DNA of 64,000 bases, from NCBI GenBank assembly GCA_964654205.1, contig CAZZHR010000002.1, positions 65,800 through 129,799 of the forward strand. Reading direction: 5' to 3'. Source of the stretch: an uncultured Candidatus Saccharibacteria bacterium (GTDB taxonomy: Bacteria; Patescibacteriota; Minisyncoccia; Phycocordibacterales; UBA2100). Positions 7,876 through 51,441 of this stretch are shown piece after piece; positions within the stretch are counted from its first letter, which is position 1, and every line of letters begins with the position of its first letter. Under the pieces are notes generated by a model, which did no database searches, was not told where the DNA came from, and worked only from the letters and a program-made list of their open reading frames with translations. Position numbers and translations under genes: made by a program.

Positions 7876-9141
7876 TCAATTTTCAGGTGTGGTGGTCGCT
7901 TGCTGCACTTGTTCGCTCTCTGTAGCCACTGGCTCGGTAGTTGTCGCTGGGATTTCTATCTCCGTACTTCCTGCTTCGGTATTCGTGCTTCCCATTCCAC
8001 TCTCCGTACTCCCCCCTTCGTTCCCTCCGCTCTCATTCGACGCTTCTTCATTCATACCTCCTATTTCGTCTCCTTGTTCTTCTTGGACTTCTTCTTGGGC
8101 AGGCGTGCTCGTTGCCGAAATCGTGTCGCTCGACGCTTCTTCATTCGTACTTCCTCCTTCTCCTGCTGGACTTTCAACGTTCACATTTTCACTTTCAACC
8201 TGCGGCGGAGCCGCCGGCCTCACATTCCCCGCCTCGCTCACTTCGCCACCCGGATTCGCAGCATCACCCACGAGCACGATGCGGCGCACTGTTATCACTG
8301 CACCGCCTGGGTCTGTCGCGCTGTATTCAATCGAGTGCGCAGTCGTCGTCGAGGTATCGATGCCAGTCCATGTCGCTTTCTCGACGCCGTTGATGCGCAT
8401 ATACACGCCCGCGTTGGTCTGGTATGGATCGACGAGTACCGCGCCGAGGTCTGCGTAGCTCGCACCGAGCGGAATACGCGCCGGATTGTTGCCGAGGAGC
8501 TGCAGACCTATCTTGAGCCCGCTCGCGCTCGTACTTCCTGCTTCGTTACTCGTACTTCCGTTTCCGCTTCCATCTGCGGGACCAAAGACCGCGGCCGCTG
8601 CGGCCACCTGCGGCTGGACGACAGGGGTGTAGCCGGGGAGCGTCTCGGTGCTGTCATCGAGGAATTTGCCGATAAGGCCGCCGTACGACGTCGCTACGGT
8701 GAGCTGCGTCACTGCGCTCCGCGCGTTCTCTTGTGTCTTGCTCAGCCGCGAAGCCTCGCGTTCTATCACTTGCCTGAGCTGCTGCGTCACGTACAGGCCG
8801 AGGTCGCGATACTCGCCGAGGTCTGTCTTCGAGACCTGCATCGTTACTTTTTTGATTACGTCCTTCCAGACGTACTCGTCGACATCTATCGTGTGGAATT
8901 CGTACTCTACGAAATAGTCGTTCTCGTCTTCGGTGACCGCGGTGATGACAGCACGCGGGCTGTAGCTCGAGAGGTCCTTGCCGACGAGGTAGGTGTTGTC
9001 CACGGTGAGCACTTCATGCTGCTGCGAGTAGATGGCCTCCGGATTCGTCGCCGCAAAGACCCCCGTGCCGCCTAGAATCAGGATGCCGAGTGCCACCGGC
9101 ACGGCATTGTGATACTGAAAGAAGTGAAGAAGTGGGGTCAT
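7876..9141 (-). CDS. membrane-anchored surface protein with an Ig-like (DUF5011-type) domain and an acidic low-complexity tail
   Basis: N-terminal TM (VPVALGILILGGTGVFA). The segment GNNPARIPLGASYADLGAVLVD...SIEYSATDPGG fits the DUF5011 Ig-like pattern. The C-terminal 120 aa or so are rich in E/S/T/G. Confidence 0.72.
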   Translation of the reverse strand: MTPLLHFFQYHNAVPVALGILILGGTGVFAATNPEAIYSQQHEVLTVDNTYLVGKDLSSYSPRAVITAVTEDENDYFVEYEFHTIDVDEYVWKDVIKKVTMQVSKTDLGEYRDLGLYVTQQLRQVIEREASRLSKTQENARSAVTQLTVATSYGGLIGKFLDDSTETLPGYTPVVQPQVAAAAAVFGPADGSGNGSTSNEAGSTSASGLKIGLQLLGNNPARIPLGASYADLGAVLVDPYQTNAGVYMRINGVEKATWTGIDTSTTTAHSIEYSATDPGGAVITVRRIVLVGDAANPGGEVSEAGNVRPAAPPQVESENVNVESPAGEGGSTNEEASSDTISATSTPAQEEVQEEQGDEIGGMNEEASNESGGNEGGSTESGMGSTNTEAGSTEIEIPATTTEPVATESEQVQQATTTPEN

Positions 9142-9175
9142 AGGTGAGAGGTTAGAGTTGATAGTTTTTAGTTGA
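9141..9175 (+). repeat. direct repeat copy 1: TAGGTGAGAGGTTAGAGTTGATAGTTTTTAGTTGA
   Basis: About 29/35 identical to the copy at 9532-9566. It spans the stop codon and 3' end of the four-helix-bundle gene. Confidence 0.8.
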
Positions 9176-9598
9176 TAAGGGTGTACGCAACTTCCCGATA
9201 ATCGCCGTAAGCATTCGCTGTACTTCGTCGAGCAATTCGATGGATTTGGAGAAATCTATACTGGGAAAGAGCCGTTGCGCCGCGAGAAGCTGTGTTTCCA
9301 GCTCCGCGGCTGAACCAGCCGAGACGCATAAGAATTGCGCGTAATCCTTCCTTGTCCCCCTCTTTGTACCCTCGGCTATGTTTGAGGGGATTGATATTGC
9401 GGCGCGCCGCATCTGGCTCATCAGACCAAACTGCTCCGACTGTGGGAGTTTCGCGGTATCGCGGTACATCGTTTCGACAAGACTCATAGCCCTCTGCCAC
9501 ACGACCAAATCCTTGAAAGACCGCACAGGGGTAGGTGCGAGGTTAGAGTTTTTAGTTTTTAGGTTTGAGCTGTGTGTCGTTTTCATATTTCTTTTCAC
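9152..9598 (-). CDS. four-helix-bundle protein of the 23S rRNA intervening-sequence (S23-IVS) family
   Basis: FKDLVVWQRAMSLVETMY, SQMRRAAISIPSNIAEG and SAGSAAELETQLLAA are hallmark motifs. The start is GTG 9598 or ATG 9586. Confidence 0.85.
   Translation of the reverse strand: MKRNMKTTHSSNLKTKNSNLAPTPVRSFKDLVVWQRAMSLVETMYRDTAKLPQSEQFGLMSQMRRAAISIPSNIAEGTKRGTRKDYAQFLCVSAGSAAELETQLLAAQRLFPSIDFSKSIELLDEVQRMLTAIIGKLRTPLSTKNYQL
9532..9566 (+). repeat. direct repeat copy 2: TAGGTGCGAGGTTAGAGTTTTTAGTTTTTAGGTTT
   Basis: Lies in the 5' codons of the four-helix-bundle gene, 391 bp from copy 1. Confidence 0.8.
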
Positions 9599-9601
9599 TA
9601 A

Positions 9602-9615
9602 AACCTCTAACCTAT
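9602..9615 (-). repeat. inverted copy: ATAGGTTAGAGGTT on the minus strand
   Basis: 13/14 match to ATAGGTGAGAGGTT at 9140-9153 in inverted orientation. The two copies bracket the four-helix-bundle gene. Confidence 0.75.
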
Positions 9616-10112
9616 AAACTCATCACTACCTTCCCAATAATGTCGACTTGTTGAACTGCTCCGAAGACGCGCCCATCGCTGCTCTTGCTGCGATTGTCAC
9701 CGAGCACAAGGTAATCTTCTGGCCCGAGTTGCATACGAAATGCTCCATTGTTCGTCCCGCCTATCATGCTTCCCGTCTCGTACCTCGTACTCTTTCCTTC
9801 GCTATCAGTGACCGTCACTCCATCTTCGCCAAGCTCTACAAGCTCACCGGGCAAGCCAATCACCCGTTTCACTTCAATCACCTCTTTCTGGTGCGGATTG
9901 CGATGCACGAGTATGTCGCCACGGCTAATGTGGAATCGGTGAGTCACCTTTTCGACGATAACAACGTCGTTCGCAGAAAACGTCGGCTCCATCGAGCCGC
10001 CAGAGACCACGTACGGACGGAAAATGAAAACCGAAGACAGCAGCGCGAGCGCAATGACAGTCGCAATCGTCTCTTTGTGCGTTCGTATCGTTGTGTGCAA
10101 TTGGTACGTCAT
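9612..10112 (-). CDS. lepB: signal peptidase I (S26 family)
   Basis: SGGSMEPTF (catalytic Ser), VKRVIGLPGE (Lys box), VLGDNRSKSSDGR and an N-terminal TM. Confidence 0.9.
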   Translation of the reverse strand: MTYQLHTTIRTHKETIATVIALALLSSVFIFRPYVVSGGSMEPTFSANDVVIVEKVTHRFHISRGDILVHRNPHQKEVIEVKRVIGLPGELVELGEDGVTVTDSEGKSTRYETGSMIGGTNNGAFRMQLGPEDYLVLGDNRSKSSDGRVFGAVQQVDIIGKVVMSL

Positions 10113-10114
10113 AT

Positions 10115-13100
10115 CTAAATTTCCATCCCGAGCATGAGCGCGAGGGCTTGGACGAAGCTGTTTGATGTGGCGGCAGGGGCGGCAGAATATTTGAACGGCT
10201 GCTCCGCGAACGCGGCGTAGACCATTGTGTCGCCGCTCGTGTTGAGGAAGGTGGTTCTTAACTTGAAACCATTGGCTAGAGAATCAATGACGTCTGCGGG
10301 TGCCGACTCTTGAGACGAACCATCGGCGCCCAAAACGCCACTTATTGGATTGTAGGTGTTCCTTGTTGTATCCAACATCCACCAACTACCCGTCGTTCCA
10401 ACCGCGGGCTTAAGCATGACAAACCGCGGCTTGAAGCCGGTGTAGACGAACGGACCGTCGGTCGAGCCATTGCCGGTGTAGGAGCCAAATGCCGACATGC
10501 CGGTCGTGGAGGCAAAGAGGTACGCCGCGTACTCGCTCCCGCCACCTACGCCGCCCGGTGTGCTCGAGGAATCGGTGAGTGCGCCGTTCTCCGTAAATGC
10601 TCCGCCTCGCCCCCTGTTGATGTGCCAATTGTCGCTCGTTCCAGAGAAGTACACATCGGGGACGAGTGTGGAACCGACCCCGATGACGGGCACGGGTTCG
10701 CCATTCGCGTCGATGAAGAAGCGCCTATTGGCTTCGACCGAGAGGTCCAGGCTCGTCCCGAACTTTATCCAAAGGTCTTTGATGTCTCCCGTGAGCTTGA
10801 AGCCCGCGTCCGGTTCCGCCCCCACCGCGAAGTTGCCTCTCGTCCAGTCGATCGTGTCGTTGGTAAGCGTGGAGCCGCCCGAATTGAAGTCGCTCACATC
10901 GTTGCGGTAGACCCAGGCGGAGCCGGTGTTTAGGTCGACCGAGAAGAGGTAGTGCACCCAGCCACTCGAGGCGAGCGTCTGCGTCGAGGAGTTCAGGATC
11001 ATGTCGAAGTTGTTGGACGCGTCGAGCCCCACGACCTGGATCACCTGCGTACCCGCCGTGCGTACGATGTAGAAGCCCGTGCCGAGGTCTCCCGTCGCTG
11101 CGATCGTCTGGTTGGTGCTATCTGCGCCCGTAATGTTGACCCAAAAAGAGACAGTTAACCGTTTGCCGTCCACGACGTCTGTGAGGTTTGCACCGCGCGT
11201 GAGGTAATCGTTGGTACCGTCGAAATGCGCGGCGCCGCCTTTGTTCACATCGGCATTCGTCCCCACGGTGAAGGCGCTTGCGGTAGGCGCGGTGTCGTTC
11301 CAGTAGGTCGCGTCGTCGGCAGTCGCAGCTGTGCTGTTGAGCAATAGATAGTCAGTCGCCGGTGCAGATGTATTGGACGAGTGATAGACCGCCCAATCGC
11401 CGGAGCCCGAAGCTTGTGTGTACGAGCGGAGCATCGCGCTCCCCTGATCGGCGATCGCCACGCTTGTGGCAGAGAGCGCCGCAACCGCGGGGTTCGGAGT
11501 CGTGCCGTCGACGATACCGCTCCCGTCGGCCACCTCTCTCCAATCGGTACCGTCGAAGGCGTACACACGGAGCTCGTTGGTCGTTGAGTCCACGAATGCC
11601 ACTCTGTTGCGGCCCAGCGCCGCCATGCCCGTCGAGCCTCCACTCGATTCGATTGTGAGAGAATTGCCCACCTGAGACCAATTCGTGCCGTCGAAATCAT
11701 ACGCGCGCAGCTGCTTTGTCCCCGAGTAGTCGTAGAGGGCTACGCGCGAAGCCGAGAGCGCCGCGAGGGAAGGGAGTGTGATGCCGCTGATGTTGAGCTC
11801 GTTCCCAGTCAGAGTCCAGTTGGTGCCGTCGAAATCATACGCGCGCAAGTCGTCGTTGGTGCCGTCGATAAAGGCTATGCGGTCGGACAGGAGCCCCGCA
11901 AGCGCGGGAGATCCCACGCCCGAGATGTTGAGCTCGTTGCCGGTCAGCGACCATGTAGAGCCGTTGAAATCGTATGCGCGCAAGTCGTCATTCCCGCTGT
12001 CAATAAATGCGACACGGCTCGAAAGCATAGTTGCGAGCGAGGGCGACCCTATACCCGAGATGCTGAGTCCGCTTCCTGTGAGAGACCAATTCGACGAGCT
12101 CAGGTCGTATGCGCGCAAAGACGCATTCCCGAAATCAACATATGCCACCCTCGTCGCGGAGAGCGCGGCAAGCGCGGGAGTATTGATACCGCTTATCGTG
12201 AGGCTGTTGCTCGTCTGTGCCCAGTCTCCGCGCACCTCTTTCACGAGCATGAAGTCCGGCGCTTTACCGAGCGAATGGCTCACCGTCCTGCTCTTACCCG
12301 TCCCCTTGTACGAGACGATGTCGAACCCGGCCTCCGCCGTCTCTTTCCAGAGCCATGAGATGTAGTTCTTGCCGCTCGTGTTGACGTTGGCCGAGCTCGC
12401 GCCGGAGCCGAGGCTGAAGCCGTTGTCGTCGTACGACGTGAGCGATTCCGTGTCGTCGACATCTTCACCGGCGGTCAGATTGGAGCTGAGCCACGCCTGC
12501 ACCCCGCGCAGAGCATCGAAGAGCGCATGGTTGGTCGAAGCGTCGGTACGGTTCTTTATCCACACGAGGTCGGGGCTAAAGCCGGTAACCGTTGTGCTTG
12601 TACCCGTCTGGTAGACAGACTTTGCCGCACCCGTGCCTGCGTACGCGATCGCATCAAAATAATTCTTCGGCACCACCACATCCGGCTCGGGCAAGTTGGC
12701 GGTCGAGAGTGCTTTGAAGCCAGAGGGCGGTTCGTATCTGAAATATCCCCCCGCCGCCGAGTAGTGCGTCGTCGTAGTTGTCCCTGGCTGACCAAAGTTT
12801 ATTGAAGCGCTTGCACCCGTGTAGACGGCGAGTGATGGAAATACAGGGTCAGCTCCGCTGAGTGTGGCGGCAGCTCCTGTGCCTCCTACTGGGTCACCAC
12901 TGTTCTGCCATGTCCCGTTTTTTGAGAAGTAAATCTTCTTGTTATCCAAATCAAGCGCTACACCGACGACATCGTTCGTTGTAAACGTATTGCCGTACGC
13001 GGCATTGGTCCCTCCGTTGTACGTCGTACCATCATGCCCGTAGTAGCTGATGCCCCCATTAGCAGACGAGCCGCCGGGAAATGCGCCGAGTGTCATCGGA

Positions 13101-14242
13101 GTGAACGCTGTGGAAGTTGCAACCCCGACGAGATAAAAATTACTGCCACTACTCTGTGCACCAGCTGTCACTTCCCAATACCATTTACCACTCGTGACAC
13201 CAATAATTGAGAGTGCCGTAAGAAAATTCCCAGCACTATGAGTCATACTCAAGTTGCCTTGAGAAAGAGTCAGCGAAGAGTTTTTGTAAATCGAGTTAAG
13301 TGTCGCAAACGCGTTCGTCGGGGTGTCGATGACTTGGTCGGTTGCGTCGAGGTTGTTGGCGGTCCAGTTGTTGCCGTTGCCGGATGTGTCGGTGCCAAGC
13401 GCCGCACTGTTGCCAAAGGCGAGCTTGAAGCCATTTGTCCCATACGTGCCCGTGTACGACTTCGGCCGCCAGTATCCATTGGCGTCGTACTCGCCGAAAG
13501 AGGTGGGCGTGAGCGCCTGCCCGTCGACAAAATGTAGGTCGGAGAGGTAGACATCAATCGAGCAACATGCACCCCCTTGTTGCTGACCGATACGATTGTT
13601 CGCATTGGCGAGCGCGAATTGGTACTCAGCGTTTTGTGCGGGATAATTCGCAGCGTCAAACGCCGTAATCTGCATCCCATCGATGTACATCTTCACTCTA
13701 TTCGCTGCAGTCGCATCTGTCGTGTCCCACACAACTACGACATGCATCCATTTTGATGGATCGCGAAAAAGTGCCGAGCTGCGAAGTTCGGCGGAAGTAG
13801 CCCCGCCGAAGGCGAAACTCAGGTTGTCCGCTGCAGCGCCGCCCGCCCCGAATTCAAGCCACGAAGAATTGCTCGACGAACCATCGTAGCCGGCAACTAT
13901 CGTTTGTCTCGTCCCCAAATTCCCCCTTTTTATCCACGTAGATATCGTTCCCTTCTTACGGTCAGCGGGTGCACCGGAGAATGTCTTGCTTAGGTTTGCA
14001 CTGTCATCGTCGTTGAAGCGAGCGCTGTTCGCGATCGTGTACGCCGCCTCCGCCTGCGGGAGTGTGAGAAGCGCAAACTGCGCGCCAAACCACGCCAGCG
14101 CGACAATCGCCGCCACAACCACCCGCCACCTCCACAGCCCGTTCAAAGCGTTCAAGGAGGCGTGCAAGGGGCGCCCTTGCACATGTGCAAGGGCGCCCCT
14201 TGCGCCGGAGATTTTGAGAAACTTGGTGAAGAGATTACTCAT
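10115..14242 (-). CDS. giant (1375 aa) signal-anchored surface protein: LamG, SPRY, six 45-aa repeats, LamG, plus three copies of a phage-structural-protein-like module
   Basis: One uninterrupted ORF with an N-terminal TM (VVVAAIVALAWFGAQFALL). Its domain signatures are listed as separate features. Its start forms an ATGA overlap with the RAYT stop. Confidence 0.9.
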   Translation of the reverse strand: MSNLFTKFLKISGARGALAHVQGRPLHASLNALNGLWRWRVVVAAIVALAWFGAQFALLTLPQAEAAYTIANSARFNDDDSANLSKTFSGAPADRKKGTISTWIKRGNLGTRQTIVAGYDGSSSNSSWLEFGAGGAAADNLSFAFGGATSAELRSSALFRDPSKWMHVVVVWDTTDATAANRVKMYIDGMQITAFDAANYPAQNAEYQFALANANNRIGQQQGGACCSIDVYLSDLHFVDGQALTPTSFGEYDANGYWRPKSYTGTYGTNGFKLAFGNSAALGTDTSGNGNNWTANNLDATDQVIDTPTNAFATLNSIYKNSSLTLSQGNLSMTHSAGNFLTALSIIGVTSGKWYWEVTAGAQSSGSNFYLVGVATSTAFTPMTLGAFPGGSSANGGISYYGHDGTTYNGGTNAAYGNTFTTNDVVGVALDLDNKKIYFSKNGTWQNSGDPVGGTGAAATLSGADPVFPSLAVYTGASASINFGQPGTTTTTHYSAAGGYFRYEPPSGFKALSTANLPEPDVVVPKNYFDAIAYAGTGAAKSVYQTGTSTTVTGFSPDLVWIKNRTDASTNHALFDALRGVQAWLSSNLTAGEDVDDTESLTSYDDNGFSLGSGASSANVNTSGKNYISWLWKETAEAGFDIVSYKGTGKSRTVSHSLGKAPDFMLVKEVRGDWAQTSNSLTISGINTPALAALSATRVAYVDFGNASLRAYDLSSSNWSLTGSGLSISGIGSPSLATMLSSRVAFIDSGNDDLRAYDFNGSTWSLTGNELNISGVGSPALAGLLSDRIAFIDGTNDDLRAYDFDGTNWTLTGNELNISGITLPSLAALSASRVALYDYSGTKQLRAYDFDGTNWSQVGNSLTIESSGGSTGMAALGRNRVAFVDSTTNELRVYAFDGTDWREVADGSGIVDGTTPNPAVAALSATSVAIADQGSAMLRSYTQASGSGDWAVYHSSNTSAPATDYLLLNSTAATADDATYWNDTAPTASAFTVGTNADVNKGGAAHFDGTNDYLTRGANLTDVVDGKRLTVSFWVNITGADSTNQTIAATGDLGTGFYIVRTAGTQVIQVVGLDASNNFDMILNSSTQTLASSGWVHYLFSVDLNTGSAWVYRNDVSDFNSGGSTLTNDTIDWTRGNFAVGAEPDAGFKLTGDIKDLWIKFGTSLDLSVEANRRFFIDANGEPVPVIGVGSTLVPDVYFSGTSDNWHINRGRGGAFTENGALTDSSSTPGGVGGGSEYAAYLFASTTGMSAFGSYTGNGSTDGPFVYTGFKPRFVMLKPAVGTTGSWWMLDTTRNTYNPISGVLGADGSSQESAPADVIDSLANGFKLRTTFLNTSGDTMVYAAFAEQPFKYSAAPAATSNSFVQALALMLGMEI
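10748..11236 (-). other. second LamG/concanavalin-like (Laminin_G_3-type) domain, aa ~1003-1165
   Basis: AAHFDGTNDYL...LTVSFWVN...GWVHYLFSVDLNTGSAWVYRND...FAVGAE fits the Laminin_G_3 pattern. Confidence 0.65.
11408..12217 (-). repeat. six tandem in-frame ~135-bp (45-aa) repeats, likely a beta-propeller
   Basis: Unit consensus LRAYDFDGTNW(S/T)LTGNELNISG(I/V)GSPSLAALSxxRVAFxDxxNDx. The GAAATCRTAYGCGCGCA motif recurs about every 135 nt on the plus strand. Confidence 0.85.
12788..13345 (-). other. SPRY/B30.2-like domain, aa ~300-485
   Basis: The TSGKWYWEV signature, then VVGVALDLDNKKIYFSKNG and FPSLAVYTGASASINFG, match the SPRY pattern. Confidence 0.7.
13508..14035 (-). other. first LamG/concanavalin-like domain, aa ~70-245
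   Basis: GTISTWIKR...WMHVVVVWDTT...VKMYIDG...SDLHFVDGQAL fits the Laminin_G_3 pattern. Confidence 0.65.
14163..14204. repeat. REP-like palindrome doublet: TGCAAGGGGCGCCCTTGCA-CATG-TGCAAGGGCGCCCCTTGCg
   Basis: Two 19-nt near-palindromes (8-bp stems) in inverted orientation form a 42-nt palindrome. It lies within codons 13-27 of the 1375-aa ORF, 35 nt downstream of the RAYT stop. Confidence 0.85.
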
Positions 14243-14901
14243 ACTTCGTCGAGCATTAATTCTCGGACTGTCGATTTCCGTGCGACGATGTCGTCGAAAG
14301 CGTCTTCAACGAAACGCTGGTACTCGCGCGCACTCTTGAAGTGCTCAAGGATTGTTGCCGTATCACACAATCCCCCGGTATCTGGCGAGAGGTACTCGGC
14401 ATAGCTACTATGCGGCCACTTTCGAGCGTCTCGCACAAGCTTCGCCACTTGGGGATTCACATGAATATAGGCCGAGAGGTGTTTGAGTTGCGTATCGTCT
14501 ACCACATGCACGGCCTTGATGCGATCCTGAAATACATGTCCCACATGATCGTACTTGCGATTGAAGTACATCGAGTAGCTCGTCAGTAGTTTCAGAAAAA
14601 GTTTACTAATCGATACATCTTTGTTCTGTCGTATGAGAAAATGGAAATGATTAGGCATAAGACAGTACACAGCAATCGAGAATGCATCTCTTTCGAATGG
14701 CTCGATGCGAATCTGGACGCGCTTCCCGCCGGTGTGCAAGGGCGCCCCTTGCACATCGCGACCGAGAGAGCGCATAAGTCGGTCTAGGAAAACTCGTGCA
14801 TCCTCATCATCTCGAAGGATGTCCATCTTGCCATTGCCGCGGCTGAAGAGGTGGTACCACTCTCCTGTCGAGAACTCTTTGTAGTCGCGTGAATTTGTCA
14901 T
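14239..14901 (-). CDS. REP-associated tyrosine transposase (RAYT) / IS200-like Y1 transposase homolog
   Basis: WYHLFSRGN, the HUH motif CLMPNHFHFLI, GHVFQDR and YIHVNP (catalytic Tyr region). There is no second IS gene. Confidence 0.85.
   Translation of the reverse strand: MTNSRDYKEFSTGEWYHLFSRGNGKMDILRDDEDARVFLDRLMRSLGRDVQGAPLHTGGKRVQIRIEPFERDAFSIAVYCLMPNHFHFLIRQNKDVSISKLFLKLLTSYSMYFNRKYDHVGHVFQDRIKAVHVVDDTQLKHLSAYIHVNPQVAKLVRDARKWPHSSYAEYLSPDTGGLCDTATILEHFKSAREYQRFVEDAFDDIVARKSTVRELMLDEV
14735..14753. repeat. third copy of the REP-like palindrome, inside the RAYT ORF and in frame
   Basis: TGCAAGGGCGCCCCTTGCA on the plus strand. It encodes VQGAPLH between the N-terminal strand and the HUH motif. 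Confidence 0.85.
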
Positions 14902-14911
14902 ACTCGATTAG

Positions 14912-17900
14912 TCATCTAAAGCCCGTGGCAGCCGCGCCGAATACGACGAGCGAGCTGGTCGCATTGGTCGCGACAAATGAGACGAGGTCACATTGGTTGG
15001 CCGTCGTGGTGAGTGTCGGTGCGCTTCCACCCTGCCAGCGCACGACCGCTGGCCAGGTCAGTGTGCGGCTTCCCGTGCCGTCTTGGCACACCACGAGACG
15101 GAGGATTTGCCCCGCGATGAAATTGGAGAATGTAATCGTGCGGTTGCCGCCGAGTGTCACCTTCTGCTGGTTGCCTTCAAGCCAGTTGATAGCCACGGTC
15201 GCGCCGTCGGAGAGACTCCTTTCCACCGTGGTGATAGCGCCACCCGCACCCACCGCAAATTTCGCAAACGGCGTCGATGTACCCACACCCACGTTGCCGT
15301 TGGCGTTGATGACAAAGAGGGACTGCGCTGTGGTGGAAGCGACCTGTATGAAGTTGGTCGAGCTATCCTGCGTCTCTATCGTGAGCTTGGCCGCAGGGGT
15401 CGTGGTGCCGATTCCTGCCGCTGTCTCTACATAGAGCTTGCCCGCTCCAGTCGGCGACGTGGGGCAGCCGGATGCGCAGACAAGGAGGTTGTCGTCGGAG
15501 AGCAGAATGTTTTTGTTGGACGTGTGTATCGTAAGGTCGCCAGTCGAGTCCACTTGGAGCGAGGCGACCGTGGAATCATTGTACGAAATCGCTACCTGAG
15601 GATTCGCCGCTGCAGCCGTCACCGAGAACTTGCGGTACGGCGATGTGGTGCCGACACCGAAGAATCCGGCACTCGTGGCGCGCATCACCTCGGTGAGCGC
15701 GCCACTTTGCAGTGTCGAGAACACGAGGTCGCCCTTCCCGAGCCCGCCGAAGTTCTGTTGCAAGATGCTCGTGATTGCAGAAGTCGTCGTACCCGTGCCG
15801 GTGACATCGAGCGCGCGGAATGAGAGCCGCGATGCGGTCGATGTCGCGCTCGCCGCATTGGTGAGGTAGAGCTGGTCGGCGGTCGCGCCGGAAGATGTGT
15901 TGTAGACATCGAGCTTCGTGCCCGGCGTCGTCGTACCGATGCCGACATTGCCCGTGCTGGTGATGCGCATTCGCTCTTGGCTCGACTCATATCCACCAGT
16001 CCTAAACTGAATACTGTCGGAGCCGCCTGATGCAACATTCCCGTTGGTAAAGAGCACCAGACTAGTATTCGAACCGAAACTCGTGTTTCCGCCGAGACCG
16101 TATCCGACACCAGACCCGTACGCACGGAAGTAGCCTGTCGCAGTATCGCTATGTACAGTGTATGTGCTCTGACCATTGCTATTTGCATTCGTCACCGTGA
16201 CCCCGTCGACGCTCGCTACATTGCTGTACACAGTGAGTTTTGTAGACGGAGTCGTCGTCCCTACCCCCACGTTGCCGGTGTTTGTCACCGCAAAGAGCGA
16301 GCTCGTCGCGCTCGCGGTCGAGCTCGCTATCTCGAAGAGCATCGTATTGGTCTCGCCCGACAGTGCGTGCACTGAGAGCTTAGCCCACGGCGACGACGTG
16401 CCGATACCGAAGCGCGCATTGACCGTATCCCACGTGAGCGTACTCGACGCCGCCATCACGCCGCCGTAGTTGAATTGTATGTTGCCGTTGCCGCCTGCCG
16501 GAGCCGAGCCGCCGGATGCGAGGAGGGAGCCGGAGAAGTATGTGTAGACTGCCGAACCATCGACAGCTGTACCCGTTGAAAGCACCGCTGCTTCGAGATA
16601 GTCGGATGTTCCATTCATGTCGACAATGGTGGTTACTTGCGCCGCATCTGCACCACCCGATCGATAGGGACCGTTTGCTATCGCGACACCGTTCTTACGG
16701 ACAGCTGCCTGACAGTTGTTTGTGGTATTTGTACATCCAACAGACGCGACAACGATATACTTGCCGGCTACCGTAGGTGTGAAGCGGTTGGTCGTTAGGT
16801 CAAAATTGTTGTTGGTATCGTAAGTTTCAGTCGTCCAATCGACCACAAGTACCGTATCGCTCACAGTGGTTGTCGCCGACCCATTGCGATGCACATGGAA
16901 CGCTACCGTAGAAGAAGCGGTTCCAACCGTGCGGTTCGTGTAGACCTTGACCGCGAATCCGCCTGCGCCGCCTGCGCCGCCTGCGCCTCCAGTGCCCGCA
17001 TTTCCAGCGCTACCCCCGGAGCCAACGGTGAAATAGAAAGTCCCCGTCGGACTGCCTACAAGCTCGTACGCGTATCCTCCGCCTCCACCTCCGCCTCCAC
17101 TCCATACGTTGTTGAGATCATTGATTCCGCCGCCAGCCCCTCCTCCTCCGAACGCGTTGCCTGCGCCGCCTGCTGCCGTAGTACCCGCTCCGCCACCCCC
17201 ACCGCGGGCACCATTGCCCCCCGCTCCTCCCACTGCGTACAGATCTTGCGTCTCCCCACCATCCGCATCAATACCAAGCGTGAGTCCGCCTGCACCACCA
17301 ACGAGATTTACTTCGCCACCGGAGCCAGAACCGCCAGATGCCGCAGGCCCATTGGAGCCAGACCCACCGCCTCCGCCCGTCGCACTTAAGTGCGGAGAGG
17401 AGCATGCGACAGAATTGCTTCCGAAGCATGTCGTACCTCCTACGCCACCATTGCCGCCGTTGCCTCCACCGCCACCCCCTCCACCGCCGCCCCAAACCTC
17501 CACTTCTATATATGACGTATCGCTCGGGAGCGTGAGCGTGCCACCGGAGAAGCTCGGTGCGCTGCCGGGGTCTCCGGTGAAGACCACCGACGAGGTTCCC
17601 ACAGTGGAAGTCGCGTATGTTCCTATGAGCGTGTTGCCACCACCTCCGCCTCCACTCGAGCCGCTCCCCGTCCCCGCACACTGTCCGCTCGGGAGCAGGA
17701 AGCAGCCGCTCGTGAGTTGGACGCCACCCGCAAAGGTGGATGTTGCCGAGCCGGTGATATTGAGGAGTGTTGATTGAATGCCGCCAGAGAATGTTGTGGT
17801 GGAAGGCGACCCAAACGTCGCTGCGCCGGTGGATGCCGAGAACGAGAGCGCGGCTACCGTAGAAGTCGACGAGTGCGTCGAGGTGGCGAGGTAGAAGGTG

Positions 17901-20900
17901 CTGCCGATGTTGCGGAGTGTCCAGAGATTGCTGCCGAGCCCGTCCGAGAGCGCGAGCTGCGGACCTGTCGAGCTCGCGACCGTAAGAATATGGTACGGTG
18001 TCGTCGTACCGATGCCGAACGTACCGTTGAAATAGCCGAGACCGTTGTCGAGAATGCGGAAGCGCGTCGTCGAGGCGGAGTCGAAGAATTCCGTGAGTAT
18101 GCCCGTGCCCGTCCCAGATCCCTGCACTGAGAGCTTAGCCCACGGTGACGTGGTGCCGATTCCGACGTTGCCCGTCGAACCCTGAATGAGCATTCTCGTC
18201 GCGTAACTCCCGGCCGTTGCGTTGGCCTTGAAATGGAGGTCGCCATTGTTGCCCGTCTGCCCTATCTCCGCCCAGCCCGTGCCAGTACCCGCGCCGCCGG
18301 TCGTGAATATCATGCTGCCGACGTTGCCTGTACCGGCTCTGTTGAGGAAGAGTCGGAAGTCGCCCGACGTGTCAAAGGCCGCACTCGTACCGAAGACGTC
18401 GAGCTTACTCCCCGGCGTCGTCGTACCGATTCCCACGCTGCCGGTGCTCTTTACCGCCAAAAGGTCACCGCCGGATCCGCTCGATGAGTTGAGCTGCAAG
18501 AGGTCCGCGCTGGAACCGGTATGAAGACTTCCAACGATGACGGGCTTCGCGATGTCGTGCTCGTTGTAGATGTTGAAGATACCTGTAAAGGTCGGGGAGG
18601 TTTTGCCAAAACCGATCTCCCCCGTGGGACTGACGATGAAGGCGTTGACGCCGTCGGTCCTGTTCTGGAAGAAGAGCGCCCCAGCAGGAGTATTGCCGCT
18701 ATCCCCCGCGAGGAAGCCCCATTTCTTACCGCCGGAGTCCGTATTCTGGAGATTGAACCACGGATCGCTGCCGCTCACATGGAACTTCGCGTCGCTTGAA
18801 GCTGCGCCCACGCCGAGCAGACCCTGCACGAGTAGGTTACCTGTCGTCGTCGCGCCGCCTGAGATCGTGAGGCCGCCCGCCTGTGTGCCGTCGCCGATGG
18901 TGGAACTTGCTGTGACACCGAGGCCGCCAGTTACAGCGAGTGTGGTCCACGGACTTACGTTGCCGATACCGACACTTCCACCACCGCTTTGAAGGACGAG
19001 ATTATTCCATGCACCGGCACCGCTGCTCTGTGCGCTGAGTCCAAAATAAGTATTGCCCGTGCTCGCGCCCGACGCTACAAAGAGCACCGAACCGGCTGAA
19101 CCAGAGACCCAATCGCTCGTCGTTATCGCAAGTTGTGAAGGCGCATTACCGCCAGTAATTTGCAACTTACCGTTGGTCGGACTCGCCGTGCCGATACCGA
19201 AGTTGCCGCTGATGCGGTCGACGAAGACGAGCGGCGAGGAGGTACCGACGGTAAAGAGCGAGGTCGATGGCGGCGTCGATGTGCCGACGGCGAGACCGCC
19301 GGAGGCGATTGTGCTCGTCGCCGTCGTCGAAGTGGCGACGAAATATGAAGCGTCGACGAATGACGTAAAGCGAGCATTGCCACTAACGTGAAGCTTATAG
19401 GTGGGAGAGGTATTACCTATACCTACAGAGCCAGCTGTATTGAGGAACAATAAGTCTGTCGCCGCGGCGCCCGTGCTGATGGAAAATCCAGAGCTATCGT
19501 TACCACTGATTCCGACTTTCCATTCTGGAGTCGTACCGCTTCTGACAAAGCTGACATTCGGTGCCACATTTCCGTTTATCAAAATTCCTTGATACGTCGT
19601 TCCTGCAGTCACATGGAGTGGCTGCTGCGGATTTGTTGTTCCAATTCCAACCCGACCGCTTGGGTTCCAAATGCCGGAGCCCGGGAAGAATGCGGTGCCA
19701 GAGACAGAGAGCGCGGTTGAGGACGCATACGGGAACGTGGACGCTGCTGTGGTAGAAGTCGCAGTGAAGATTGGCGCGGTGATGGTGTTGTATGCGGTGA
19801 GTGCGCCGCGCAGGAGTGAGCTGCCCGCGACTGAGAGGTTTCCGCTTGAGTCGATGGTCGTCGTCGCGCTGCCGCCGAAGTACGCAGTGCCAAAGTTGGA
19901 GAAGTTAGTACTCGACGCATTCCCCGAGAATATCTGGAGCGCCGTCCAGTTGTTGGAGACACTTGTGTCCACGGAGCCCCCACCGCCCGTGATACAAGCA
20001 CCGTCTACGGCAAAGCATCCGTCGGCGAGGTTTATTCCATTGGCAAATGTGGTAGTAGCCGAGCCGGTAAAGGTAATATCGCTCAGCGTAGTCCCAGAAA
20101 GGGTACCGCCCGTAATCGTCGAGTCGGAGATATCGACGCTGCTGAGCTGATCGATTTTGTTTGTGTGCGCGACCGTCTGATACACATTGGTAATACTTGC
20201 CGACTGCGCTGTAGAGACACCGGCGACGAGGCTTGTGAGTCGCTGTTCCACGGCTGCGATCCGCGTATCGAGGTCGGCATCCGTGATGCCGCCGACAGAT
20301 GCAACTATGCGCTCGGTCTCGACGATACGTTCAACGACTCGTTCGTTTGTCACCACAGTCGATGTGCTCACAACAACAGGCGTTTGCTGCGATTGCGCTA
20401 CGATAACCTGTGCGCGTTCATACGGATCCATCGTGTCGATGAATCCCGCATCGAGCGGTGTAAGTGCGAGCGAGTTCGTCGCGTCACTCGGGAACACGAT
20501 GTTGTAGACGAACGTGTCGACGCTCGTGTTGACTGCCTTCGCGATGGTGCGCAGCGCATCAGGGAAGAAAGAAAGTGTCGCGCTCGATACTTGTGCGAGC
20601 GCGACCTCGGGATTCTCAACCGCATAGTACGTCGCATCACTCGCCGCGCGCACCGCGCGCGTCGCCACTTCATCAACTCGTACGAGCGACTGCGCGACGC
20701 TCGCCGCCATCTCGCGCGTAGTCTCCGCTGCAAACCGCGCATAGGCTGGGTCGACAAACGCATACGTGCCAAATGTCATGGTGAACGCAACGAGCATCGC
20801 GACAAACTTCTGCAGAAACTCCGTCGCGGGAGAAATCGTGTACACCGGCACGTGCACATGTGCGTGACTCAAAGTACGAGCAACCGCCTCGTGCACGCCC

Positions 20901-21349
20901 GACGGCGCCGCTGCGATAGACGGCATCGCGTGAGCGACCTTCGCGCTCTGCGCCACCGCCGCAGCCTTCAATTTTTCCTGCACATGCTTCGCGTGCGCCG
21001 CCAACGTCTTCGTCACAGGTATTTGTCCGCTCACAGAAAGGGCGCTCTCGACACTCTTTACACTTTCAGATTTCAACTTTATATCTTGTGGCTTATTCTC
21101 CACCCCGTGATATTCACGCACCCGTTCATCCGACAGCTGCTCCCTGCGGATGGTTTTCGCATGCTCTTGCTCCACGAGGTATTTTTGGAGCGAGCCCTCA
21201 TCGACGTACCAGTTCTTGCCGATTCTTCTACCGCGAAGCCTTCCATCACGGCAAAGACGAGCGATGTAGTCGCGAGAGAGCCCTGCACTGGATGAAGCAT
21301 CCCCGGCCGAGAGGTGCTTCTGCCCGTCGAAATATATTTCGTTGCTCAT
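14912..21349 (-). CDS. giant (2145 aa from ATG 21349) membrane protein: cytoplasmic excisionase-type HTH, one TM, then an ectodomain of GIGTTxP repeats, a glycine-rich domain and a C1q-like domain
   Basis: One uninterrupted ORF. Modules are listed separately. I prefer ATG 21349 (MSNEIYFDG) over GTG 21430 because the paralogous module in the next gene starts at the same relative position. Confidence 0.9.
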   Translation of the reverse strand: MSNEIYFDGQKHLSAGDASSSAGLSRDYIARLCRDGRLRGRRIGKNWYVDEGSLQKYLVEQEHAKTIRREQLSDERVREYHGVENKPQDIKLKSESVKSVESALSVSGQIPVTKTLAAHAKHVQEKLKAAAVAQSAKVAHAMPSIAAAPSGVHEAVARTLSHAHVHVPVYTISPATEFLQKFVAMLVAFTMTFGTYAFVDPAYARFAAETTREMAASVAQSLVRVDEVATRAVRAASDATYYAVENPEVALAQVSSATLSFFPDALRTIAKAVNTSVDTFVYNIVFPSDATNSLALTPLDAGFIDTMDPYERAQVIVAQSQQTPVVVSTSTVVTNERVVERIVETERIVASVGGITDADLDTRIAAVEQRLTSLVAGVSTAQSASITNVYQTVAHTNKIDQLSSVDISDSTITGGTLSGTTLSDITFTGSATTTFANGINLADGCFAVDGACITGGGGSVDTSVSNNWTALQIFSGNASSTNFSNFGTAYFGGSATTTIDSSGNLSVAGSSLLRGALTAYNTITAPIFTATSTTAASTFPYASSTALSVSGTAFFPGSGIWNPSGRVGIGTTNPQQPLHVTAGTTYQGILINGNVAPNVSFVRSGTTPEWKVGISGNDSSGFSISTGAAATDLLFLNTAGSVGIGNTSPTYKLHVSGNARFTSFVDASYFVATSTTATSTIASGGLAVGTSTPPSTSLFTVGTSSPLVFVDRISGNFGIGTASPTNGKLQITGGNAPSQLAITTSDWVSGSAGSVLFVASGASTGNTYFGLSAQSSGAGAWNNLVLQSGGGSVGIGNVSPWTTLAVTGGLGVTASSTIGDGTQAGGLTISGGATTTGNLLVQGLLGVGAASSDAKFHVSGSDPWFNLQNTDSGGKKWGFLAGDSGNTPAGALFFQNRTDGVNAFIVSPTGEIGFGKTSPTFTGIFNIYNEHDIAKPVIVGSLHTGSSADLLQLNSSSGSGGDLLAVKSTGSVGIGTTTPGSKLDVFGTSAAFDTSGDFRLFLNRAGTGNVGSMIFTTGGAGTGTGWAEIGQTGNNGDLHFKANATAGSYATRMLIQGSTGNVGIGTTSPWAKLSVQGSGTGTGILTEFFDSASTTRFRILDNGLGYFNGTFGIGTTTPYHILTVASSTGPQLALSDGLGSNLWTLRNIGSTFYLATSTHSSTSTVAALSFSASTGAATFGSPSTTTFSGGIQSTLLNITGSATSTFAGGVQLTSGCFLLPSGQCAGTGSGSSGGGGGGNTLIGTYATSTVGTSSVVFTGDPGSAPSFSGGTLTLPSDTSYIEVEVWGGGGGGGGGGNGGNGGVGGTTCFGSNSVACSSPHLSATGGGGGSGSNGPAASGGSGSGGEVNLVGGAGGLTLGIDADGGETQDLYAVGGAGGNGARGGGGGAGTTAAGGAGNAFGGGGAGGGINDLNNVWSGGGGGGGGYAYELVGSPTGTFYFTVGSGGSAGNAGTGGAGGAGGAGGFAVKVYTNRTVGTASSTVAFHVHRNGSATTTVSDTVLVVDWTTETYDTNNNFDLTTNRFTPTVAGKYIVVASVGCTNTTNNCQAAVRKNGVAIANGPYRSGGADAAQVTTIVDMNGTSDYLEAAVLSTGTAVDGSAVYTYFSGSLLASGGSAPAGGNGNIQFNYGGVMAASSTLTWDTVNARFGIGTSSPWAKLSVHALSGETNTMLFEIASSTASATSSLFAVTNTGNVGVGTTTPSTKLTVYSNVASVDGVTVTNANSNGQSTYTVHSDTATGYFRAYGSGVGYGLGGNTSFGSNTSLVLFTNGNVASGGSDSIQFRTGGYESSQERMRITSTGNVGIGTTTPGTKLDVYNTSSGATADQLYLTNAASATSTASRLSFRALDVTGTGTTTSAITSILQQNFGGLGKGDLVFSTLQSGALTEVMRATSAGFFGVGTTSPYRKFSVTAAAANPQVAISYNDSTVASLQVDSTGDLTIHTSNKNILLSDDNLLVCASGCPTSPTGAGKLYVETAAGIGTTTPAAKLTIETQDSSTNFIQVASTTAQSLFVINANGNVGVGTSTPFAKFAVGAGGAITTVERSLSDGATVAINWLEGNQQKVTLGGNRTITFSNFIAGQILRLVVCQDGTGSRTLTWPAVVRWQGGSAPTLTTTANQCDLVSFVATNATSSLVVFGAAATGFR
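16517..16906 (-). other. C1q/TNF-like jelly-roll domain (130 aa)
   Basis: VAFHVHRNG...FDLTTNRFTPTVAGKYIVVASV...AAVRKNGVAIANG...VDMNGTSDYLEAAV...YTYFSGSLLA follows the C1q globular-domain pattern (F.A...F...G.FT.P..G.Y.F...KNG...L..GD.V...F.G.LL). Confidence 0.6.
16940..17515 (-). other. glycine-rich domain of the type seen in phage minor-tail / ALK-like Gly_rich proteins
   Basis: Opens with IEVEVWGGGGGGGGGGNGGNGG, has internal EVNLVGGAGG and FYFTVGSGGSAGNAGTGGAGG, and closes with GGFAVKVY. Confidence 0.6.
21173..21349 (-). other. excisionase-type (HTH_17-like) module at the N-terminus of the giant protein
   Basis: IYFDGQKHLSAGDASSSAGLSRDYIARLCRDGRLRGRRIGKNWYVDEGSLQKYL fits the pattern of HTH_17, a MerR-superfamily helix-turn-helix (hEaA..lGvs..ti.rl.r.G.l....iG..w.i....l..yl). 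Confidence 0.6.
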
Positions 21350-21650
21350 GAGCGATGATGCCTGTGGCCGGACGCACGATTTATCTAATATTCTACTACT
21401 CTTTTCGCCAATTGGACGTGTATCGGACACTATTACGTGTGGACAAGCCTAAGCAGAATTTGTACCGGACATTTTTTACATTTTTTCCCACAAGTTCGTA
21501 TCAACGCACAAAAAATTCTCCGTTTTTTTGAAAAAAAGCCTCTTCACTACAACCTCTCACCTCTTACCTACCCCCCTCCTCCCGGCCGACTCGGGCATCC
21601 GAGGAGCGACGTAGAGCGGTATTCCGCGCGTGTGTGGCGCAGAAAATGAA

Positions 21651-47793: not shown

Positions 47794-48419
47794 GAAGAAG
47801 TGCTCTTTACTGCCGCGACGAGGTATCCGAGCGGATAGCGATTGGTTGAGAATGTCTGCTTTTTGTCCAGACCCACGAGCACGTCATCGAGTACAGAACT
47901 CACCAGGCCATGTGCCTGCGCAAGAAGCGGAACCTTCGAAAGAACGTTATGCGCCACGTGGGACGCCGCCGTAAAGGGACCCTTTCCGATAGGCGTTACC
48001 TGCACGTTGTGGAACTCCGCATCCGCGAATATTTTCTTCAGGGTTTCATCAGTGTAGCGAAAGTAATCGTGCGGCGAGGGGTGTACTTGCATGATGAATG
48101 GCACCGCGAGCAGTATCTTCCCGCCGGGCTTGAGTATGCGGCGACACTCTGAAAGGAATTGCTCGTGATTGTAGATGTGCTCCATGATGTTCATGCATAT
48201 GACACCGTCGTACGACGCGTCTGGGAGCGGAAACTTTTCTTCCAGATCGAAAATGTGCTCCGCGCCCGTCTCCCGCGAGAGATTCACGACCTCCACCTTT
48301 TTCTCTCCGCGCAGAAGCGCGTGATAGCCCGAGCGACTATCGCCCCCGACGTCTAACACACGGCCAGTGAGCTCGTGCTTTTCGAGCTCTCTGTACAGTC
48401 GACGTCTCCAGGGACTCAT
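47790..48419 (-). CDS. class I SAM-dependent methyltransferase
   Basis: VLDVGGDSRSGY (motif I-like) and ILKPGGKILLAVPF. 4-nt overlaps with both neighbouring genes. Confidence 0.78.
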   Translation of the reverse strand: MSPWRRRLYRELEKHELTGRVLDVGGDSRSGYHALLRGEKKVEVVNLSRETGAEHIFDLEEKFPLPDASYDGVICMNIMEHIYNHEQFLSECRRILKPGGKILLAVPFIMQVHPSPHDYFRYTDETLKKIFADAEFHNVQVTPIGKGPFTAASHVAHNVLSKVPLLAQAHGLVSSVLDDVLVGLDKKQTFSTNRYPLGYLVAAVKSTSS

Positions 48420-51423: not shown

Positions 51424-51441
51424 GGCGACGTATACTAGCAA

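Follow-up and report, generated by a model that had tools for sequence, protein, structure and literature searches.

Proteins in which a LamG, a SPRY and a DUF7483 domain follow one another in this order are known from marine phages (phrog_19943, phrog_27411 and phrog_24898), with examples in cyanophage SS120-1 (CYYG_00029), Methylophilales phage MEP301 (gp16), Roseobacter phage CRP-811 (gp32) and pelagiphage HTVC011P, and the architecture is already catalogued in PHROGs and Pfam. These phage proteins are about 780–800 aa long, end in the pattern ..PFKYxNAR and are encoded in tail modules, of which the homologous gene is the last. Within phage fibres, LamG3 and SPRY domains have been described as lectin modules (PMC7824862). 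Large surface proteins with concanavalin-type domains have also been proposed as candidates for host recognition in patescibacteria (PMC13059738). Beyond the type IV pili of Saccharibacteria, the recognition of partner cells by members of the CPR/Patescibacteria, and their attachment to them, is little understood.

The locus described here lies in a window of 64,000 nucleotides, the whole stretch of DNA that was analysed, which is part of a cellular chromosome closest to Candidatus Kaiserbacteria. It encodes a 1375-aa protein that, judged from its sequence, has a homologue in marine podoviruses and siphoviruses, namely their distal tail-fibre or receptor-binding protein, and that shares with the marine phage proteins the core and its domain order at 35–39% identity. 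The reading that we consider probable is that of a chromosomally encoded, Sec-secreted, multi-module surface adhesin, related to phage fibres, of a CPR bacterium near Candidatus Kaiserbacteria.

Architecture of the 1375-aa protein

The minus-strand open reading frame 10115..14242 is complete, terminates in a TAG stop codon at 10115–10117 and encodes 1375 aa, and an identical protein is present in the NCBI database (P0001). In the mature protein, taken to begin at about A67, a LamG lectin fold is followed by a SPRY domain and, at the C-terminus, by DUF7483, which is split twice by loop insertions, namely a six-bladed propeller (aa 673–941) and a second LamG domain. The linear order is therefore LamG 1, SPRY, DUF7483 part 1, propeller, DUF7483 part 2, LamG 2 and DUF7483 part 3, with the following features from the N-terminus to the C-terminus:

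14045..14242, minus strand: putative N-terminal Sec-type signal peptide, aa 1–66, with a basic n-region, a hydrophobic stretch at aa 41–60 and a predicted signal peptidase I site between PQAEA and AYTIANSARF
13535..13972, minus strand: Laminin_G_3 domain 1 (concanavalin A-like lectin fold), aa 91–236; PF13385, E 1.5e-12, 48.3 bits
12788..13186, minus strand: SPRY domain, aa 353–485; Pfam PF00622, profile positions 1–120 of 121, E 1.5e-17
12230..12670, minus strand: DUF7483 part 1 (lobe 1 and the first strands of lobe 2), aa 525–671; PF24299 profile positions 2–159, E 1e-38
11420..12226, minus strand: insertion 1, predicted six-bladed β-propeller, aa 673–941; six repeats of 40–47 aa, each with an LRxY end
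11240..11398, minus strand: DUF7483 part 2 (remainder of lobe 2), aa 949–1001; PF24299 profile positions 163–213
10766..11221, minus strand: insertion 2, Laminin_G_3 domain 2, aa 1008–1159; PF13385, E 3.5e-8, 34.2 bits
10196..10534, minus strand: DUF7483 part 3 (lobe 3), aa 1237–1349; PF24299 profile positions 215–330, E 2.1e-40; phrog_24898 'tail fiber protein'
10118..10195, minus strand: hydrophobic C-terminal tail, aa 1350–1375, ..YSAAPAATSNSFVQALALMLGMEI, delimited by comparing the C-termini of 120 homologues

The domain calls made in the original prediction (SPRY, two LamG folds and a phage-type module) agree with these Pfam and PHROG profile matches. The SPRY domain exceeds the Pfam gathering cut-off of 26.3 bits both in the whole protein (E 4.5e-16, 59.5 bits) and in the segment alone (E 1.5e-17, 64.3 bits), and the four motifs by which it had been recognised are all in place: GKWYWEV (aa 352–358, nt 13169–13189), VGVALDLD (aa 426–433), KIYFSKNG (aa 436–443) and INFG (aa 481–484, nt 12791–12802). 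A phmmer comparison with PDB sequences matched it to the SPRY domains of RanBP9/10, the ryanodine receptor and HERC1 (E 5e-7 to 1e-3), among them RanBP10 (5jia, E 5.2e-7), RanBP9 (5ji7, E 1.4e-6) and the ryanodine receptor (6kim, E 3e-6), and the alignments to PDB SPRY domains place its limits wider, at about aa 324–505. The sequence similarity to these eukaryotic SPRY/B30.2 proteins is significant and extends over the β-sandwich of the SPRY domain, strands of the GKWYWEV and VGVALDLD types among them, and this is the one domain in common. Unlike its eukaryotic counterparts, the SPRY domain of the 1375-aa protein would be an extracellular module of a fibre-like protein, and it occurs outside any PRY, TRIM, SOCS or LisH/CTLH context. 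Its presence had been considered remarkable on account of the rarity of SPRY domains in bacteria, a weak premise because PHROGs and Pfam already list the LamG–SPRY–DUF7483 architecture, a word-indexed sequence search gives more than 5000 relatives, and SPRY and LamG3 domains are known from phage fibres.

Both Laminin_G_3 folds that had been proposed exceed the Pfam cut-off of 27.6 bits when their segments are scanned separately, while a whole-protein Pfam scan lists neither copy, even at E ≤ 1. The SPRY domain does stand between them in linear order, as had been claimed, but the second copy lies about 520 residues downstream and is nested inside DUF7483, where it occupies part of a larger insert (approximately aa 1002–1236). 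An equivalent insert with LamG 2 is found at the identical site in another homologue (P0025), with 40% identity over 225 aa.

DUF7483 and its nested inserts

The three parts of DUF7483 match the 330 positions of PF24299 in order, with 278 bits and E 1.4e-82 against a Pfam cut-off of 27 bits, and part 2 shares 82–84% identity over 55 aa with its Kaiserbacteria homologue. Three additional modules with a YxGxG...GFxP pattern had been noticed in this region, and they are indeed present at the positions given and weakly alike (blastp E 8e-6, 1.5e-4 and 0.05); nevertheless, they are lobes of one split DUF7483 domain rather than independent modules. The second of them had been described as interrupted, and the interruption is real, but it consists of a complete six-bladed β-propeller that the original prediction had missed. 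The link to podovirus virion proteins that had been proposed has been substantiated by matches to two PHROG families, 'virion structural protein' (phrog_19943, E 4.9e-161) and 'tail fiber protein' (phrog_24898, E 4.5e-53), together with 71 phage records recovered by tblastn at 35–39% identity over about 50% of the query, which corresponds to the core without its inserts.

Separate models were made of the propeller insert and of DUF7483 as it occurs in P0042, a close homologue, and the insertion sites were mapped by sequence. The DUF7483 model (pLDDT 87.2, pTM 0.86) predicts an all-β domain with three weakly similar sub-modules of about 100 residues, and both insertion points fall in its loops, one between strands 139–144 and 151–155 and the other in the linker 197–209. 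An uninterrupted DUF7483 of about 320–360 aa is present in 101 of 119 homologues, and the inserts found at the loop sites of other homologues are Gly-rich, LamG or LVIVD-propeller modules. The family, which is common to phages and bacteria, comprises approximately 28,000 clusters at 50% identity; it has neither a solved structure nor a significant fold match, and a literature search found DUF7483 mentioned in no paper and SPRY combined with pelagiphages in none. Ligand-binding domains that project from 'split' companion domains of RTX-type adhesins have reportedly been described by Graham et al. in 2024. The design principle is alike, in that a β-sandwich scaffold is broken up by an entire binding domain projecting from one of its loops; however, the 1375-aa protein has no sequence or fold kinship with RTX-type adhesins, no RTX repeats and no type I secretion signal, and the comparison is an analogy only.

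The propeller, whose repeats are also visible in the DNA as repeat family D3, has 24 strands in an AlphaFold2 model (pLDDT 90.4, pTM 0.88). Foldseek searches of the PDB with this model retrieved Pizza6, NHL domains (Brat, Thin and TRIM71), the PknD sensor and the lectins RSL and AAL (E 5e-12 to 1e-8, TM 0.6–0.76), with TM 0.69–0.76 to the Brat NHL domain and Pizza6. Residues 673–941 are thus predicted to form a six-bladed, four-stranded propeller of NHL/PknD-like fold, which by its modelled structure also resembles the fucose lectins RSL and AAL; unlike all of these propellers, it sits within a hairpin loop that belongs to another domain. In sequence, it does not match the Pfam NHL family, its sole Pfam match being a sub-threshold one to Rax2 (E 8.6e-4, 19.2 bits, cut-off 28.8), and its relatives give weak Tectonin/Rax2 matches. 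By sequence, it is nearest to the heads at the C-terminal end of phage tail proteins; the proteins that carry a related propeller have phage tail N-termini (phrog_394 with E 1.5e-47, DUF2612/phrog_587 and tail-fibre N-termini). The propeller occurs in none of the best 120 homologues. A recent insertion by duplication was considered on account of a 'GDWA' motif on both sides and was rejected, as the codons differ and the first copy is the start of blade 1.

The 1375-aa protein is most closely related, at 46–48% identity, to hypothetical proteins of Candidatus Kaiserbacteria (P0002/HYS26_04540 in CP066682, P0052, P0046 and P0016). A putative signal peptide with the AxA junction and the C-terminal tail are common to these proteins, as is the chromosomal location beside signal peptidase I and a giant fibre gene. 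Two of them (P0002 and P0016) differ in having two tandem cores with Gly-rich inserts, and P0046 differs in having an LVIVD propeller in the loop of lobe 1 and an unrelated LamG domain in the linker between lobes 2 and 3.

Predicted export, genomic setting and alternative readings

The N-terminus looks like a Sec signal peptide on inspection, with a long, basic n-region that contains WRWR, an h-region (Kyte–Doolittle maximum of 2.33 at aa 41) and small residues at −3 and −1. Cleavage would take place between AEA and AY, a position suggested by the sequence pattern, and the conserved domain starts straight after an [AV]-x-[AG] motif in 22 CPR-type homologues, whereas phage-type homologues have no N-terminal signal segment. 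Since the hydrophobic stretch of about 20 residues is long for an h-region, it could instead be an uncleaved membrane anchor. At the other end of the protein, the hydrophobic tail is present only in cellular (CPR-type) homologues among the 120 compared; the phage proteins have neither this tail nor the propeller or second LamG insert. In the P0042 model, the corresponding tail is predicted with low confidence as a helix. No NCBIfam family, whether of sorting signals or of another kind, matches the 1375-aa protein at E ≤ 0.1, and the tail (..FVQALALMLGMEI) lacks an LPXTG motif, a PEP motif and a basic end. The genes that directly surround the open reading frame are the following:

9612..10112, minus strand: signal peptidase I gene; Peptidase_S26, E 9e-33
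14239..14901, minus strand: small Y1_Tnp (IS200-like) gene; PF01797, E 4e-9
14912..21430, minus strand: 2172-aa fibre-like giant; tail-fibre PHROGs 18345, 9942 and 9017, E 1e-13 to 2e-7

The start codon of the signal peptidase I gene lies 2 nt past the stop of the 1375-aa open reading frame, and because of this spacing the two genes are likely co-transcribed. The homologue directly adjoins the signal peptidase gene in two other loci (L009 and L010) and lies near it in a third (L001). The original label of surface protein is also supported. On the other side, the stop of the Y1_Tnp gene overlaps the ATG of the 1375-aa gene (ATGA), and a gene of this kind holds the equivalent position in L010. 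An Avd-like 23S_rRNA_IVP gene is also adjacent. A role of the 1375-aa gene as the target of a diversity-generating retroelement was rejected, as no TR/VR-type repeat involves the gene and no reverse transcriptase is found among the scanned ORFs.

The giant has an HTH-like N-terminus and, at about aa 205–225, a hydrophobic segment; it further contains GNVGIGTTxP repeats and a Gly-rich block and ends in a phage-fibre domain, and its last 113 aa match 83 phage records. In SS120-1 and MEP301, a domain of this type is encoded by the gene immediately upstream of the one for LamG–SPRY–DUF7483, in MEP301 as the stand-alone gp17, and it is the partner domain that these phages share with the giant of the window. 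The synteny of the giant extends over four genomes, one of them the complete Kaiserbacteria chromosome CP066682, and the four keep the order HTH protein, giant, small gene, target gene, Peptidase_S26, Ig-like protein and GAPDH.

The 1375-aa protein might alternatively not be docked on the giant and instead sit on another appendage, such as a type IV pilus, as its tip or as an accessory adhesin, or else be a lectin secreted in free form or a wall protein of an S-layer-like kind, a reading that we regard as unlikely although it has several points in its favour. In P0057, one of the homologues, LamG–SPRY–DUF7483 units are fused to an N-terminus that resembles that of type IV pilins, and in L010 a pilin (N_methyl) gene is located about 3.5 kb downstream. 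The hydrophobic C-terminal tail, which is specific to the class, might itself be an anchor, and type IV pili are the attachment organelles with experimental support in Saccharibacteria. The 1375-aa protein itself, however, carries no prepilin motif, no pilus-assembly genes adjoin it among the scanned ORFs of the window, and both the adjacency to the giant in four genomes and the pairing of the giant's C-terminal domain with a homologue in two phages argue for a fibre partner.

It is very improbable that the gene encodes a true virion tail-fibre protein of an integrated or degraded CPR prophage, in spite of the very strong PHROG matches to virion structural and tail fibre proteins, the tail-fibre PHROG matches of the adjacent giant, the two-gene order common to phages, and the HTH_17/excisionase-like and Y1 transposase-like genes nearby. 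The phage homologues sit in tail modules; that of the window, by contrast, is a cellular gene in synteny with housekeeping genes. Its surroundings include GAPDH, transketolase, GatB, SecA, signal peptidase I and glycan-synthesis genes, with the locus set between GatB/SecA and signal peptidase/GAPDH, and no capsid, portal, terminase, tail-tube or lysis genes are present among the 20 flanking and distal ORFs scanned. Moreover, this order has been kept in four genomes whose proteins differ in identity by about 50%, an argument for vertical descent over a long time. Virion proteins are normally not exported by the Sec pathway, and the cellular homologues have gained a signal peptide and a C-terminal tail that are lacking in those of phages. 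We give least credence to a carbohydrate-active enzyme or nutrient-capture protein, in which the concanavalin-like and propeller folds would serve catalysis or scavenging instead of cell–cell recognition.

Proposed role and significance

The Sec-secreted, fibre-related surface protein remains the preferred reading, and its function as an adhesin is what we infer from sequence. The original prediction of a multivalent adhesin is supported in part: the putative signal peptide with its conserved AxA site, the abutting peptidase gene, the content of four or five lectin- or receptor-binding-type modules and the homology to the last gene of phage tail modules are all consistent with it. The organism, a tiny bacterium of groundwater type, probably leads a host-dependent (episymbiont) life, as assumed from its lineage.

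According to the mechanism that we propose, the co-encoded signal peptidase I would remove the signal peptide, and the cleaved protein would bind to the neighbouring, membrane-anchored fibre protein of 2172 aa, with the C-terminal domain of the latter as its docking site, a step suggested because the two genes are adjacent in four CPR genomes and, by analogy, in two phages, where the homologue would dock on the product of the upstream fibre gene. The four or five glycan- or protein-binding modules would then face outward and recognise the surface of another cell, possibly that of a host bacterium. In turn, DUF7483 would act as a scaffold whose loops take up interchangeable binding modules, and specificity may change by domain swapping, as with phage receptor-binding proteins.

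A more tentative proposal, which we consider possible but doubtful, is that a CPR lineage domesticated a two-gene phage tail-fibre cassette as a permanent, Sec-exported recognition organelle of the cell surface, in which heads swapped through the DUF7483 loops change partner specificity. The cassette would comprise a fibre shaft with a terminal docking domain, followed by the LamG–SPRY–DUF7483 receptor-binding protein, and the swapped heads would be propellers, LamG domains and Gly-rich modules, in a process akin to host-range change in phages.

With a putative adhesin, a probable fibre partner and a signal peptidase, the locus is a concrete candidate for partner recognition in Kaiserbacteria-like organisms. 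It also draws attention to DUF7483, a very large family with an apparent tolerance of nested binding domains, whose members in abundant marine phages (pelagiphages, cyanophages and roseophages) are the presumed host-recognition proteins. Since the family is common to CPR adhesin candidates and marine phages, one solved member would inform both fields.

Domain composition and nested architecture

The minus-strand ORF at positions 10115-14242 encodes a protein of 1375 residues. Sequence profiles confirm the SPRY domain and the two LamG domains of the original prediction, since the HMM search returned significant matches, well beyond chance, for all three; the four SPRY motifs that it had quoted also lie where it had placed them. 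The SPRY domain (aa 353-485) matches the full length of its Pfam profile, with E 4.5e-16 in the whole protein and 1.5e-17 in the segment, and sequence comparison with solved structures retrieved only SPRY domains, namely those of RanBP9/10, the ryanodine receptor and HERC1. Both Laminin_G_3 domains, LamG1 (aa 91-236, 48.3 bits) and LamG2 (aa 1008-1159, 34.2 bits), exceed the curated Pfam cut-off in segment scans. Neither copy was reported by hmmscan of the whole 1375-residue protein, even at E ≤ 1, which illustrates that domain calls in long multi-domain proteins need repeating on segments. In phage tail fibres, SPRY and Laminin G3 have been described as lectin modules with a concanavalin fold (PMC7824862). 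The protein had been singled out because SPRY is rare in bacteria, a weak premise, since the LamG–SPRY–DUF7483 architecture is already catalogued in PHROGs and Pfam with thousands of members.

Three further modules had also been proposed. Their repeated pattern is real, with weak mutual similarity (E 8e-6 to 0.05) among three sub-modules of about 100 residues; however, they are not separate modules but the internal three-fold substructure of a single DUF7483 domain (278 bits, Pfam). The three matches are consecutive stretches of one 330-position Pfam profile, separated by two inserts:

aa 525-671: DUF7483 part 1, profile positions 2-159
aa 673-941: insertion 1, six tandem repeats of 40-47 residues, each ending in LRxY
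aa 949-1001: DUF7483 part 2, profile positions 163-213
about aa 1002-1236: insertion 2, holding LamG2
aa 1237-1349: DUF7483 part 3, profile positions 215-330

Because of these two insertions, DUF7483 and the C-terminal tail span 856 residues, whereas in 101 of 119 homologues they form an uninterrupted stretch of 320-360 residues. Of the 120 best homologues, P0025 alone carries insertion 2 at the same site (40% identity), and the propeller formed by insertion 1 is absent from all 120. No description was found of a phage-type propeller and a LamG domain doubly nested in a split DUF7483.

Predicted folds of DUF7483 and the propeller

The uninterrupted DUF7483 of P0042 (aa 442-790), a close CPR homologue whose lobe 1 is 64% identical to that of the target, was modelled on a 34-sequence alignment as an all-β structure (pLDDT 87.2, pTM 0.86). 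Both insertion points of the target fall in loops of this model, that of the propeller in the hairpin between strands 139-144 and 151-155, and that of LamG2 in the linker 197-209 between lobes 2 and 3. The whole-domain model gave no Foldseek match at E ≤ 1e-3 among solved structures, and the DUF7483 profile gave none against PDB sequences. The weak top Foldseek matches are mostly three-lobed single-chain β assemblies, including the PCSK9 C-terminal domain, the perforin-like APCβ domain, a single-chain C1q head and Parkia lectin. The family is very large: clustering at 50% identity gives 28,171 clusters when E ≤ 1e-3 is required, of which 18,381 remain at E ≤ 1e-30. No mention of DUF7483, nor any description of its three-lobed fold, was found in the literature searched, and the predicted fold is apparently new.

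The AlphaFold2 model of insertion 1, built on an 18-sequence alignment, contains 24 strands arranged as six four-stranded blades (pLDDT 90.4, pTM 0.88). Foldseek matched it to six-bladed propellers of the NHL/PknD type and to designed 'Pizza6' derivatives (E 5e-12 to 1e-8, TM 0.6-0.76), with six-bladed fucose lectins also among the matches. About 78 proteins, mostly unannotated and of roughly 300-500 residues, are related in sequence. Several of the ten examined start with a phage tail module, either a phrog_394 tail protein (E 1.5e-47), a DUF2612/phrog_587 structural protein or a tail-fibre N-terminus; therefore, judging from these relatives, the propeller appears to behave as a phage receptor-binding 'head' module.

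Phage homology and cellular synteny

In a tblastn search, 71 phage records matched the core of the target at 35-39% identity; the aligned part, about half of the query, is that without inserts. Most belong to Pelagibacter, Synechococcus/cyanophage and Roseobacter phages, with proteins annotated as 'virion structural protein', 'SPRY domain containing protein', 'lectin domain containing protein' or 'tail fiber protein'. In phages SS120-1, CRP-811 and MEP301, the tail module ends with the core homologue.

The window itself is non-phage, and encodes a PfkB kinase, transketolase, GAPDH, GatB, SecA, signal peptidase I, an O-antigen-ligase-like protein, a glycan-synthesis cluster and a type IV secretion coupling protein. 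The nearest named relatives of the target belong to Candidatus Kaiserbacteria. The window, the complete Kaiserbacteria chromosome CP066682 and two further assemblies share one gene order: an HTH_17 protein, a giant protein of 2000-2400 residues, a small IVP or Y1_Tnp gene, the target, Peptidase_S26, an Ig-like surface protein and GAPDH. GatB heads this order, as confirmed in the window and CP066682 only. The conserved order argues for a stably inherited cellular gene. Further features of the window are:

7876-9141, minus strand: protein of 421 aa, hydrophobic at its N-terminus and rich in Ser/Thr/Glu at its C-terminus, without a Pfam match, conserved behind the gene for signal peptidase (47% identity to locus L001); the L009 counterpart in the same position has a weak Bact_surface_Ig-like match
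9152-9598 and 14239-14901, minus strand: 23S_rRNA_IVP (Avd-like four-helix) or Y1_Tnp (IS200-like) small genes, found always between or beside giant and target in four genomes (also loci L001, L009 and L010); the ORFs scanned include no reverse transcriptase, and a template/variable repeat was likewise not detected
49101-49216 and 50168-50283: 116-nt direct repeat, 72% identity, 1067 nt apart, spanning adjacent ORFs 48416-49444 and 49441-51441 (UDP-glucose dehydrogenase/glycosyltransferase fusion)
59199-61079, minus strand: the coupling protein, of TrwB/TraG type, amid housekeeping and glycan-synthesis genes

The neighbouring giant (2172 aa; positions 14912-21430, minus strand) has an HTH_17-like N-terminus, a hydrophobic segment near aa 205-225, read directly off the translation, many GNVGIGTTxP repeats (DNA repeat family D1) and a long Gly-rich block. 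It matches three tail-fibre PHROGs, and 83 phage records hold annotated tail/fibre proteins whose C-terminal regions match the last ~110 residues of the giant. Its orthologues (2017-2395 aa) adjoin those of the target in three other genomes. In both phages with the two features, the LamG–SPRY–DUF7483 gene directly follows the coding sequence for the giant's C-terminal domain, the same order as in CPR genomes. In SS120-1 (locus L007, 7709-7912), a ~90-aa domain of this type forms the C-terminus of the 874-aa CYYG_00030, adjoining the homologue CYYG_00029; in MEP301 (locus L011, 4402-4797), it stands alone as the 131-aa gp17, directly upstream of the SPRY protein gp16. No description of this two-gene arrangement, common to CPR genomes and phages, was found.

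Putative export, display and function

Two classes can be told apart among the 120 best homologues. Phage-type proteins lack a hydrophobic N-terminus and end in ..AFAExPFKYxNAR, whereas the cellular type, about 35 proteins including the target, has a hydrophobic N-terminal segment and an additional C-terminal hydrophobic tail of ~20 residues. This tail (..FLMGMxF; in the target ..FVQALALMLGMEI, positions 10118-10195, minus strand) has variants ..FVQAxAFLMGMxF, ..PFxFMEF and ..LFFNEF (P0004, P0010, P0031, P0042 and others). Among the homologues, only those of the cellular type, with a signal peptide, have this tail. Its length does not suffice for a transmembrane helix, and it matches none of the known sorting signals; in CPR bacteria it might serve as an anchoring or docking motif of an uncharacterised kind. 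No earlier account was found of this cellular branch, with its signal peptide and its synteny conserved across Kaiserbacteria-like genomes. In one homologue, P0057 (2309 aa), LamG–SPRY–DUF7483 units come after an N-terminus that resembles a type IV pilin (MRQGFSLVEMSILLVIFGG..), and the module thus appears to be fused to a pilin in another organism.

Directly before the conserved LamG region, 22 cellular-type proteins carry an [AV]-x-[AG] motif, the pattern of a predicted signal peptidase I site; the target reads AEA followed by AYTIANSARF. The arrangement is operon-like: the start of the target overlaps the upstream small gene by ATGA, and only 2 nt lie between the stop codon of the target and the gene for signal peptidase I, an adjacency also present in L009 and L010. 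Given the hydrophobic N-terminus, the junction and the abutting peptidase gene, the target would be exported by Sec and its signal peptide removed by cleavage. In the target, the n-region is long and contains ARGALAHVQGRPLH (aa 14-27; positions 14140-14200, minus strand), a motif that recurs almost unchanged in the n-regions of P0011, P0013 and P0016, although this part of a signal peptide is seldom conserved.

The adjacency shared by CPR genomes and phages leads us to propose that the secreted target may dock on the distal end of a membrane-anchored giant, and would be displayed on the surface, probably on this neighbouring fibre. Another mode of display, pilus-associated, wall-bound or free, is unlikely. 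The phage homology might also bring to mind a prophage virion protein, which is highly improbable in view of the cellular gene order, and an enzyme is hardly to be expected. A surface adhesin is the role that we consider moderately probable; in Patescibacteria, a part in host recognition has been proposed for candidate large surface proteins that contain concanavalin-type domains (PMC13059738). The target would bind glycans or proteins of another cell via LamG1, SPRY, the propeller, LamG2 and possibly the DUF7483 lobes. In homologues, the loop sites hold Gly_rich_2, other LamG types or an LVIVD propeller (P0046), a variety which suggests that specificity evolves via module swapping.
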